From Escherichia coli (lineage in GTDB: Bacteria > Pseudomonadota > Gammaproteobacteria > Enterobacterales > Enterobacteriaceae), in NCBI RefSeq assembly GCF_003334335.1, contig NZ_QOWQ01000007.1: 64,000 bases of DNA, one strand, 5' to 3'. Shown here in pieces: positions 55,101-58,100 of the stretch (the first letter of the stretch is position 1; each line of letters opens with the position of its first letter). The position numbers are program-made.

Positions 55101-58100
55101 ATACGGTTCGACAAAGATGGAAGAGAGACTCTCTCGCAGCCCTGGTGGCAAACTGGCTTTGTGGGCTTTTTATACATGGTGTGGCTATTTCGTCTGGGCA
55201 ATGGCGCGTTACATCTGGGTGATGAGCCGGATCCCCGATGCTCCCGTGTCGGGATTTGAAAGCGATTTAGGCTCTACCGCGGGAAAGTGGTTAGGGGCAC
55301 TGGTCGGATTTTTATTTATGGCTCTGGTCGGGGCATTGTTAGGCAGCATTGCCTGGTACACCCGACCTCGTCCCGCACGTAGCAGACGCTATGAATAAAA
55401 ACTGCTAAGGTGGCGACTCTTTGGCAACGGAGCGCGTATGGACTTACAACACTGGCAGGCACAGTTCGAAAACTGGTTGAAAAACCATCATCAGCACCAG
55501 GACGCGGCCCATGACGTGTGTCATTTTCGCCGCGTCTGGGCTACGGCACAGAAGCTGGCGGCAGATGACGACGTCGATATGCTGGTGATTTTAACCGCCT
55601 GTTATTTTCACGATATTGTGAGCCTGGCGAAAAATCATCCGCAAAGGCAGCGTTCTTCAATCCTGGCAGCAGAAGAGACGCGTCGCCTGCTCCGTGAAGA
55701 GTTCGTGCAATTTCCGGCGGAGAAAATTGAGGCCGTTTGTCATGCCATTGCCGCTCACAGTTTCAGCGCGCAAATCGCCCCCTTAACAACGGAAGCTAAA
55801 ATCGTCCAGGATGCGGATCGGCTGGAAGCCCTGGGGGCGATTGGCCTGGCGCGCGTGTTTGCCGTTTCAGGGGCATTGGGCGTGGCGCTGTTTGATGGTG
55901 AAGATCCGTTCGCACAGCATCGCCCGCTTGATGATAAACGCTACGCCCTGGATCATTTCCAGACTAAGTTGCTGAAGCTACCGCAAACCATGCAAACCGC
56001 AAGAGGCAAGCAGCTGGCGCAGCACAACGCGCATTTTTTAGTCGAGTTTATGGCGAAGCTCAGTGCCGAACTGGCGGGGGAGAATGAAGGTGTCGATCAC
56101 AAGGTGATAGATGCGTTTTCACCCGCGGGATAAGCGCGTGGCCCTAAATGGCTGTAATTATGTTAACCTGTCGGCCATCTCAGATGGCCGGTTAAATCTA
56201 TGCAGGAAAATATATCAGTAACCGATTCATACAGCACCGGGAATGCCGCACAGGCAATGCTGGAGAAACTGCTGCAAATTTATGATGTTAAAACGCTGGT
56301 GGCGCAGCTTAATGGTGTGGGTGAGAATCACTGGAGCGCGGCAATTTTAAAACGTGCGCTGGCGAATGACTCGGCATGGCACCGTTTAAGTGAGAAAGAG
56401 TTCGCCCATCTGCAAACGTTGTTACCCAAACCACCGGCACATCATCCGCATTATGCGTTTCGCTTTATCGATCTATTTGCCGGAATTGGCGGCATCCGTC
56501 GCGGTTTTGAATCGATTGGCGGACAGTGCGTGTTTACCAGCGAATGGAACAAACATGCGGTACGCACTTATAAAGCCAACCATTATTGCGATCCGGCGAC
56601 GCATCATTTTAATGAAGATATCCGCGACATCACCCTCAGCCATAAAGAAGGCGTGAGTGATGAGGCGGCGGCGGAACATATTCGTCAACACATTCCTGAA
56701 CACGATGTTTTACTGGCCGGTTTCCCTTGTCAGCCATTTTCGCTGGCTGGCGTATCGAAAAAGAACTCGCTCGGGCGGGCGCACGGTTTTGCCTGCGATA
56801 CCCAGGGCACGCTGTTTTTTGATGTGGTACGCATTATCGACGCGCGTCGTCCGGCGGTGTTTGTGCTCGAAAACGTCAAAAACCTGAAAAGTCACGACCA
56901 GGGTAAAACGTTCCGCATCATCATGCAGACGCTGGACGAACTGGGCTATGACGTGGCTGATGCAGAAGATAATGGGCCAGACGATCCGAAAATCATCGAC
57001 GGCAAACATTTTCTGCCGCAGCACCGTGAACGCATCGTGCTGGTGGGTTTTCGTCGCGATCTGAATCTGAAAGTCGATTTTACCCTGCGTGATATCAGCG
57101 AATGTTTCCCTGCGCAGCGAGTGACGCTGGCGCAGCTGTTGGACCCGATGGTCGAGGCGAAATATATCCTGACGCCGGTGCTGTGGAAGTACCTCTATCG
57201 ATATGCGAAAAAACATCAGGCGCGCGGTAACGGCTTCGGTTATGGAATGGTTTATCCGAACAATCCGCAAAGCGTCACGCGTACGCTGTCTGCGCGTTAT
57301 TACAAAGATGGCGCGGAAATTTTAATCGATCGCGGCTGGGATATGGCCAAAGGTGAGAAAGACTTTGACGATCCGCAGAATCAGCAACATCGTCCACGTC
57401 GGTTAACGCCTCGGGAATGCGCGCGCTTAATGGGTTTTGAAGCGCCGGGAGAAGCGAAATTCCGCATTCCGGTTTCGGACACTCAGGCCTATCGCCAGTT
57501 CGGTAACTCGGTGGTCGTGCCGGTCTTTGCCGCGGTGGCAAAACTGCTTGAGCCAAAAATCAAACAGGCGGTGGCGTTGCGTCAGCAAGAGGCACAACAT
57601 GGCCGACGTTCACGATAAGGCCACTCGCAGCAAAAATATGCGCGCGATTGCCACGCGTGATACGGCGATAGAGAAGCGCCTCGCCAGTCTGTTAACCGGG
57701 CAGGGCCTGGCATTTCGCGTTCAGGACGCCAGTCTGCCCGGACGTCCGGATTTTGTCGTTGATGAATATCGTTGCGTGATATTTACCCATGGCTGCTTCT
57801 GGCATCATCATCACTGCTATCTGTTTAAAGTGCCTGCGACTCGAACCGAGTTCTGGCTGGAGAAGATAGGTAAAAATGTTGAACGCGATCGCCGCGATAT
57901 CAGTCGTTTGCAGGAACTCGGCTGGCGCGTACTGATTGTCTGGGAGTGTGCATTACGTGGGCGCGAGAAGCTGACGGATGAAGCGCTTACCGAGCGTCTG
58001 GAAGAGTGGATCTGCAGCGAAGGTGCCAGCGCGCAGATCGACACGCAGGGGATTCATTTACTCGCTTGATGCGTCCTGAATAACTGGCGCAACTACGGGT

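Follow-up and report, generated by a model that had tools for sequence, protein, structure and literature searches.

The 20-nucleotide overlap of dcm and vsr in Escherichia coli: a probable case of translational coupling

Introduction

Two genes with related tasks, dcm and vsr, adjoin each other in a stretch of 64,000 nucleotides (nt) from Escherichia coli (NCBI RefSeq assembly GCF_003334335.1, contig NZ_QOWQ01000007.1), which is called the window throughout. The locus raises a simple question: does vsr start inside the 3' end of dcm and, if so, does the synthesis of Vsr depend on the translation of dcm? A sequence-only reading had assumed both and had termed the arrangement a known translational coupling of the methyltransferase with its cognate T:G mismatch repair endonuclease. 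We find the overlap as described. The best explanation, which we hold with high confidence, is that the chromosomal dcm-vsr pair is transcribed into one messenger RNA (mRNA) and that a separate Vsr protein is initiated at AUG 57599, its synthesis being dependent on dcm translation, i.e., translational coupling. For this explanation the coordinates, the frame, the protein identities, the start codon and the conservation are taken from the present analysis, co-transcription and the polarity of the dcm-6 mutation from the literature. The comparative part adds that the geometry is common to most of the Enterobacteriaceae sampled, that its length tracks the conserved N-terminus of Vsr, that vsr persists without an adjacent dcm in several genera, and that the coupling is not explained by any conserved RNA structure.

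The overlap and its reading frames

The elements of the junction are as follows.

56200-57618, + strand: dcm coding sequence, 472 amino acids, stop codon TAA at 57616-57618; from the list of open reading frames (ORFs)
57588-57593, + strand: Shine-Dalgarno sequence AAGAGG of vsr, located within dcm codons, 5 nt from the ATG
57599-58069, + strand: vsr coding sequence, 156 amino acids, start codon ATG at 57599-57601, stop codon TGA at 58067-58069; from the ORF list
57599-57618, + strand: overlap of dcm and vsr, 20 nt, ATGGCCGACGTTCACGATAA; read from the sequence
57616-57618, + strand: dcm stop codon TAA; in the vsr frame its T closes codon 6 (GAT) and its AA opens codon 7 (AAG)

Excluding the dcm stop codon, the overlap measures 17 nt. 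With respect to dcm, vsr is in the +1 frame, (57599-56200) mod 3 = 1. The overlap is read as M-A-D-V-H-D-(K) in the vsr frame and as (H)-G-R-R-S-R-stop in the dcm frame. Inspection of the frames in the sequence and in the ORF list thus reproduced exactly what the sequence-only reading had given, namely the position 57599-57618, the length of 20 nt and the differing frame. Its gene assignments stand as well, both proteins scoring far above the cut-offs of curated families.

In profile searches Dcm matched NCBIfam NF007772 with 951.2 bits (cut-off 710) over residues 1-469 of 472, and TIGR00675 with 351 bits (cut-off 100.65) over residues 89-450. C5-methyltransferases are characterized by motif I (FxGxG), motif IV (PCQ, with the catalytic Cys) and motif VI (ENV). 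The translation of dcm contains all three as FAGIGG, PCQ and ENV, the latter within VLENVKN. That this Dcm would methylate the inner C of CCWGG we infer from the RefSeq annotation as dcm in a genome with 100% identity.

Vsr scored 182.7 bits against TIGR00632 (cut-off 97.85), residues 1-118 being aligned to profile positions 1-119 of 119. Compared with chain A of the crystal structure 1cw0 (PDB), residues 2-156 are identical at 154 of 155 aligned positions; the sole substitution is S140 for G. Therefore, all active-site residues of 1cw0 are retained. [quoted passage not shown]

The start codon of vsr

The overlap exists only if vsr starts at 57599. An initiation elsewhere would either abolish or greatly extend it, and on paper there is room: the vsr frame is open back to 57437 and offers in-frame TTG codons at 57437, 57527 and 57548 as well as an ATG at 57638 (Met14). 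A Shine-Dalgarno sequence was sought in the 20 nt upstream of each of these four alternatives and none was found. The hexamer AAGAGG ahead of ATG 57599 forms a duplex with the 3' end of 16S ribosomal RNA of -5.8 kcal/mol.

For comparison, 80 related Enterobacteriaceae loci were collected; tabulated counts below refer to these plus the window (81 sequences). Many of the relatives carry an in-frame stop codon 3-33 nt upstream of the homologous vsr ATG with no start in between, i.e., between the positions of the TTG codons and the ATG. In Salmonella arizonae and diarizonae a TAG immediately precedes the ATG. The N-terminus M[ATV]DVH[DNS]K is kept even where the DNA upstream is unrelated; the start is ATG, in a few cases GTG. 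Residues 1-13 are conserved across genera and coincide with the start of the TIGR00632 profile, and the full-length protein in 1cw0 begins at residue 2. Furthermore, a Vsr lacking the first 14 residues has reduced activity (PMC2715241). Because of the upstream in-frame stops in relatives, a profile which starts at residue 1 and a structure which starts at residue 2, the vsr start is placed at 57599. The sequence-only reading had named a different start codon as the result that would overturn it; such a start is very unlikely in view of the conserved N-terminus and the truncation data, too, and is already largely refuted.

A more exotic possibility dispenses with a separate initiation altogether. 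The +1 relation of the frames and the 20-nt overlap would, in principle, permit ribosomes to shift frame within the overlap, and Vsr activity would then reside in a Dcm-Vsr fusion protein. However, ATGGCCGACGTTCACGATAA shows no evident slippery or shift-prone motif. Moreover, the Vsr protein of 156 amino acids is active on its own, has been crystallised as such, and vsr is found alone, without dcm, in many genera. Such a fusion is even harder to credit than a displaced start. Both candidates were rejected, the alternative starts by the evidence for a conserved start and the frameshift fusion by a stand-alone active Vsr and the missing slippery motif.

Co-transcription and polarity

What, then, links the expression of the two genes? 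dcm and vsr share one operon (PMC12907096; PMC4924334), and full-length transcripts determined by SMRT-Cappable-seq join yedR-yedJ-dcm-vsr (bioRxiv 10.1101/262964). The gene upstream of dcm in the window belongs to the same operon:

55438-56133, + strand: yedJ, HD-domain phosphohydrolase; NF007515, 461 bits; RefSeq concurs

A consensus scan of dcm, in itself weak evidence, detected no promoter of the sigma-70 type on the + strand. Both genes are on the + strand and the vsr start at 57599 precedes the end of the dcm stop codon at 57618, which is the geometry of a coupled pair. In a 1993 study Dar and Bhagwat reportedly found a shared promoter, a separate translation of Vsr, and a need of upstream dcm translation for efficient translation of vsr. 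According to a later article, vsr activity is lost as well in dcm-6, a nonsense mutation at codon 45 (PMC4444293, citing Dar & Bhagwat 1993). As to the claim of a known translational coupling, it is supported by the common operon and, indirectly, by the polar effect of dcm-6.

The following sequence of events would account for these data. One mRNA would carry yedR/drpB, yedJ, dcm and vsr. Vsr would be made separately from AUG 57599 behind the moderate Shine-Dalgarno sequence AAGAGG, which is embedded in the last dcm codons. As the dcm stop codon ends 20 nt downstream of the vsr start, which is in the +1 frame, every ribosome finishing dcm would cross the vsr initiation region and terminate just downstream, so that Vsr would depend on dcm translation. 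Two coupling models, which are not mutually exclusive, are discussed in a review: unfolding of the RNA, and scanning with re-initiation by the ribosome (PMC12548453). Applied to dcm-vsr, an otherwise structured vsr initiation region may be held open by the ribosome traffic, or ribosomes that terminate on dcm may start anew at the vsr AUG close by upstream; both routes may operate.

Coupling is best at spacings of -4 to +3 nt, drops faster with longer overlaps, and has been documented at -38 and -50 nt (PMC12548453). Since coupling is reportedly poor at long negative spacings, little Vsr per Dcm is to be expected. VSP repair operates mainly in stationary phase, and Vsr must stay low because its overexpression is mutagenic (PMC2715241). 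A low Vsr:Dcm ratio brought about by the overlap plausibly fits both properties. This setting of the ratio is an inference, as is any choice between the two routes. A caveat applies: given the timing of VSP repair and the need for low Vsr, coupling does not tie the level of Vsr to that of Dcm.

Conservation of the junction

Within E. coli the locus is nearly ubiquitous, which makes the overlap more than a chance finding. A megablast search with 57300-58100 located it in 5362 of 5426 complete genomes. The best match, at 100% identity, is E. coli strain 1506 (NZ_CP059288), in which RefSeq annotates dcm at 1401-2819 and vsr at 2800-3270 of the extracted locus (L001), i.e., the same 20-nt overlap. 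A 76-nt segment spanning the junction is present in 5320 E. coli genomes at 95-100% identity; that of K-12 MG1655, the background in which the pair was characterised, is 100% identical. The window contains the same locus as the K-12 dcm-vsr operon, with an identical junction, the same flanks (drpB, yedJ, dcm, vsr, yedA, yedI) and, relative to the crystallised K-12 Vsr, the one substitution S140 for G. There is no substantive difference from K-12; the window is a strain variant closest to strain 1506. The K-12 operon is said to have been described by Sohail et al. in 1990, Hennecke et al. in 1991, and Dar and Bhagwat in 1993. The 20-nt overlap in E. coli is already known from the literature and is not new. 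As a side observation, 58 of the 5426 complete genomes had no match to the segment of the dcm 3' end and vsr, and two matches were on plasmids.

Among the 81 sequences the overlap is kept in 56, i.e., in 55 of the 80 related loci and the window, always in the same frame relation. The genera concerned include Escherichia, Citrobacter, Salmonella, Klebsiella, Enterobacter, Lelliottia, Yokenella and others. The sequences are distributed as follows.

20-nt overlap: 49 sequences, the window included
17-nt overlap: 3 sequences, two Raoultella with a GTG start and L056
14-nt overlap: 2 sequences, Superficieibacter
35-nt overlap: 2 sequences, Siccibacter (L040, L041), in which GAC AAA in vsr abolishes the TAA
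Intact dcm upstream absent: 18 sequences, mostly yedJ-vsr; Kosakonia, Phytobacter and others
dcm present, non-overlapping: 7 sequences, Cedecea, Enterobacter sp. Ag1 and Buttiauxella

The spacer between dcm and vsr measures 12 nt in Cedecea and Enterobacter sp. Ag1 and includes a GGAG Shine-Dalgarno sequence. In Buttiauxella the distance is about 0.9-1 kb in four loci and 35 nt in Buttiauxella sp. B2. The gap in Buttiauxella L042, L044, L049 and L059 (about 1500-2500) holds an ORF of about 530 nt on the minus strand. Altogether, vsr lacks an overlapping dcm in 25 of the 80 loci and retains its own Shine-Dalgarno sequence there. The vsr product is 78-85% identical to E. coli Vsr in Kosakonia, Phytobacter and several Enterobacter-like genomes, where the gene directly follows yedJ with no dcm in between. 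Strong Shine-Dalgarno sequences are present in such yedJ-vsr loci (L025, L033, L037, L046, L047, L052, L054, L057, L058, L062, L065, L069, L077; vsr at 2501).

The tail of Dcm encoded in the overlap differs by species (GRRSR, GGRSR, GGRTR and others) and lies beyond the end of the methylase domain at residue 450. Because the dcm stop is formed by vsr codons 6 and 7 and the Dcm tail is variable, the length of the overlap appears to follow mainly from purifying selection on the N-terminus of Vsr. A separate selection on the position of the dcm stop through GAT at codon 6 was not supported, as GAT is found in 15 of the 18 loci without dcm.

In three genomes dcm is destroyed and vsr intact, and a remnant ORF in the dcm frame still reaches the native TAA inside vsr. 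In Escherichia sp. MOD1-EC7003 (L002, 1930-2520) an in-frame deletion leaves an ORF of 196 amino acids with the ATG and the TAA of native dcm at its ends, and the 20-nt overlap with vsr is kept. In Klebsiella indica (L030, 2443-2520) a dcm remnant of only 25 codons ends at the same TAA and vsr is intact. In E. coli CM13 (L083, 2500-2571) the last 72 nt of dcm precede an intact vsr; this deletion is possibly engineered. The three variants are compatible with a selection for translation into the vsr start, but so small a number does not amount to evidence.

Initiation signals and RNA structure

How well is the vsr start equipped to initiate without help from dcm? The median duplex energy of the Shine-Dalgarno sequence is -5.8 kcal/mol in overlapping loci, -7.8 kcal/mol where no dcm is upstream, and -6.6 kcal/mol where dcm does not overlap. 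In several overlapping lineages it is very weak, for instance about -3 kcal/mol in Citrobacter and -3.6 kcal/mol in E. whittamii. The predicted energy for opening the region from -18 to +12 at the vsr AUG is 13.0 kcal/mol, compared with medians of 13.35 kcal/mol in the interior of coding regions (n = 167) and 8.6 kcal/mol at the starts of nearby genes (n = 42). Correlative as they are, these values fit a vsr start which is not equipped like an independent initiator and would rely on the ribosome traffic from dcm.

Several points weigh against coupling. The contrasts in Shine-Dalgarno strength and opening energy between the classes of loci are confounded by phylogeny and correlative. The polar effect of dcm-6 could also reflect a Rho-dependent polarity of transcription or decay of the mRNA. 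In our literature search we found no ribosome-profiling or proteomic data on the dcm-vsr junction, and beyond PMC4444293 no article which spelled out a translational coupling of the two genes. In 25 loci vsr persists behind a Shine-Dalgarno sequence of its own in the absence of an overlapping dcm, which implies that coupling is not generally required for vsr expression. GAT-AAR is the commonest combination at vsr codons 6-7 also where dcm is absent; thus, the position of the dcm stop need not be selected. Nor does RNA structure help. The predicted minimum-free-energy fold of the E. coli sequence has a hairpin at 57568-57628 which takes in the dcm stop as well as the AUG and the Shine-Dalgarno sequence of vsr, yet against shuffled sequences it is not significant (z = -1.48). 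RNAalifold over 37 species yields almost no consensus structure at the vsr ribosome-binding site. In these 37 sequences 69.6% of the cells are paired versus 68.7% in shuffles, and there is a single covarying pair.

Both members of this lone pair, at alignment columns 15 and 64, are wobble positions, and 15 of the 37 sequences leave them unpaired. As a conserved regulatory structure the hairpin was rejected on account of its z score, the lack of an RNAalifold consensus and the absence of excess pairing. The RNA-unfolding variant of coupling calls for an inhibitory structure which is conserved and covers the ribosome-binding site of vsr; only non-specific structure was found there.

From these points an explanation can be assembled in which the overlap has no translational role. 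vsr would initiate independently, the loss of Vsr in dcm nonsense mutants would reflect Rho-dependent polarity or mRNA destabilisation, and the overlap would be a frozen accident, a non-essential Dcm tail reading to the first stop in the conserved 5' end of vsr. Several observations agree: AAGAGG at 5 nt ahead of the ATG is usable; in the 25 loci lacking an overlapping dcm, vsr retains a Shine-Dalgarno sequence; loci without dcm use the TAA-forming codons just as often; the Dcm tail varies between species and is outside the TIGR00675 domain; and long overlaps reportedly couple poorly (PMC12548453). However, the vsr initiation region does not show the low-structure signature of independently initiated genes, and in several overlapping lineages, among them Citrobacter and E. 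whittamii, the Shine-Dalgarno sequence is very weak. All told, we consider an overlap devoid of translational function improbable, and translational coupling from the one dcm-vsr mRNA remains our preferred explanation.

Coupling might be taken one step further. Instead of a frozen accident, the unusually long -20 overlap could be a conserved attenuator which keeps the Vsr:Dcm ratio low by inefficient coupling and by a weak Shine-Dalgarno sequence constrained by dcm codons, perhaps even the site of the reported growth-phase control of Vsr; lineages which lost or separated dcm would have compensated with a stronger Shine-Dalgarno sequence. This is a speculation to which we assign a low probability.

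Comparison with other systems

The coat-lysis gene pairs of the phages fr (-38 nt) and MS2 (-50 nt) resemble dcm-vsr in that the downstream start is well before the upstream stop and in another frame. In these phages the second gene needs translation of the first for its own expression (PMC12548453). They differ in the spacing, which is -20 nt in dcm-vsr, and in that no conserved inhibitory hairpin was found at dcm-vsr. Canonical pairs with ATGA (-4) or TAATG (-1) junctions are, like dcm-vsr, co-directional and co-transcribed with interleaved stop and start codons. Their spacings couple most efficiently, whereas -20 is uncommon and is expected to be less efficient. Unlike such pairs, the overlap of dcm and vsr constrains six vsr codons and the dcm tail together.

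With respect to function, Neisseria and Caulobacter (ScmA/VsrA) likewise pair a 5-methylcytosine methylase with a Vsr-type T:G endonuclease (PMC12907096). Linkage and spacing vary; the vsrA gene of Caulobacter is unlinked to its methylase (PMC12907096). A methylase joined with the repair enzyme for its mutagenic by-product is a classic case of linked genome maintenance. The overlap would ensure that cells which make Dcm also make some Vsr; for E. coli none of this is new.

Neighbouring features of the window

At its 3' end vsr (+ strand, TGA 58067-58069) converges with yedA (- strand, stop at 58058-58060), and the two genes share 12 nt, 58058-58069. The same 12-nt overlap is in the RefSeq annotation (L001, 3259-3270); thus, vsr is overlapped at both ends. 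Ahead of dcm a near-perfect palindrome is situated at 56168-56192 (GTCGGCCATCT C AGATGGCCGGT), ending 8 nt before the ATG at 56200. It could be a 3' structure of yedJ or a brake on dcm translation. At the dcm start itself a clear Shine-Dalgarno sequence is not visible, and the predicted opening energy of 15.9 kcal/mol is among the highest of the starts tested.

Further Rfam matches are genes of small RNAs which flank the region, rseX at 54779-54868 (- strand) and DsrA at 63271-63357 (+ strand), the His operon leader at 571-694 (- strand) and STnc240 at 3433-3507 (+ strand). Four genes for transfer RNA (tRNA)-Asn (GTT) are located within 19 kb, at 25409-25484, 27817-27892, 29641-29716 and 44027-44102, and all reach the same score, 72.6 bits, with the tRNA model of Rfam. 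Genomic islands are known to integrate at tRNA-Asn genes. A tRNA-Ser (CGA) gene is at 45094-45183. By the annotation of the collinear RefSeq genome of strain 1506 (L082), a gene of 7983 nt at 35731-43713 (- strand) encodes a protein with Ig-like domains, a YeeJ-type giant adhesin. The window begins near the his operon leader, and at the coordinates corresponding to its positions 1 to about 8000 strain 1506, collinear elsewhere, carries genes for a phage tail and baseplate. The window and strain 1506 therefore differ at this end by a prophage or an island.

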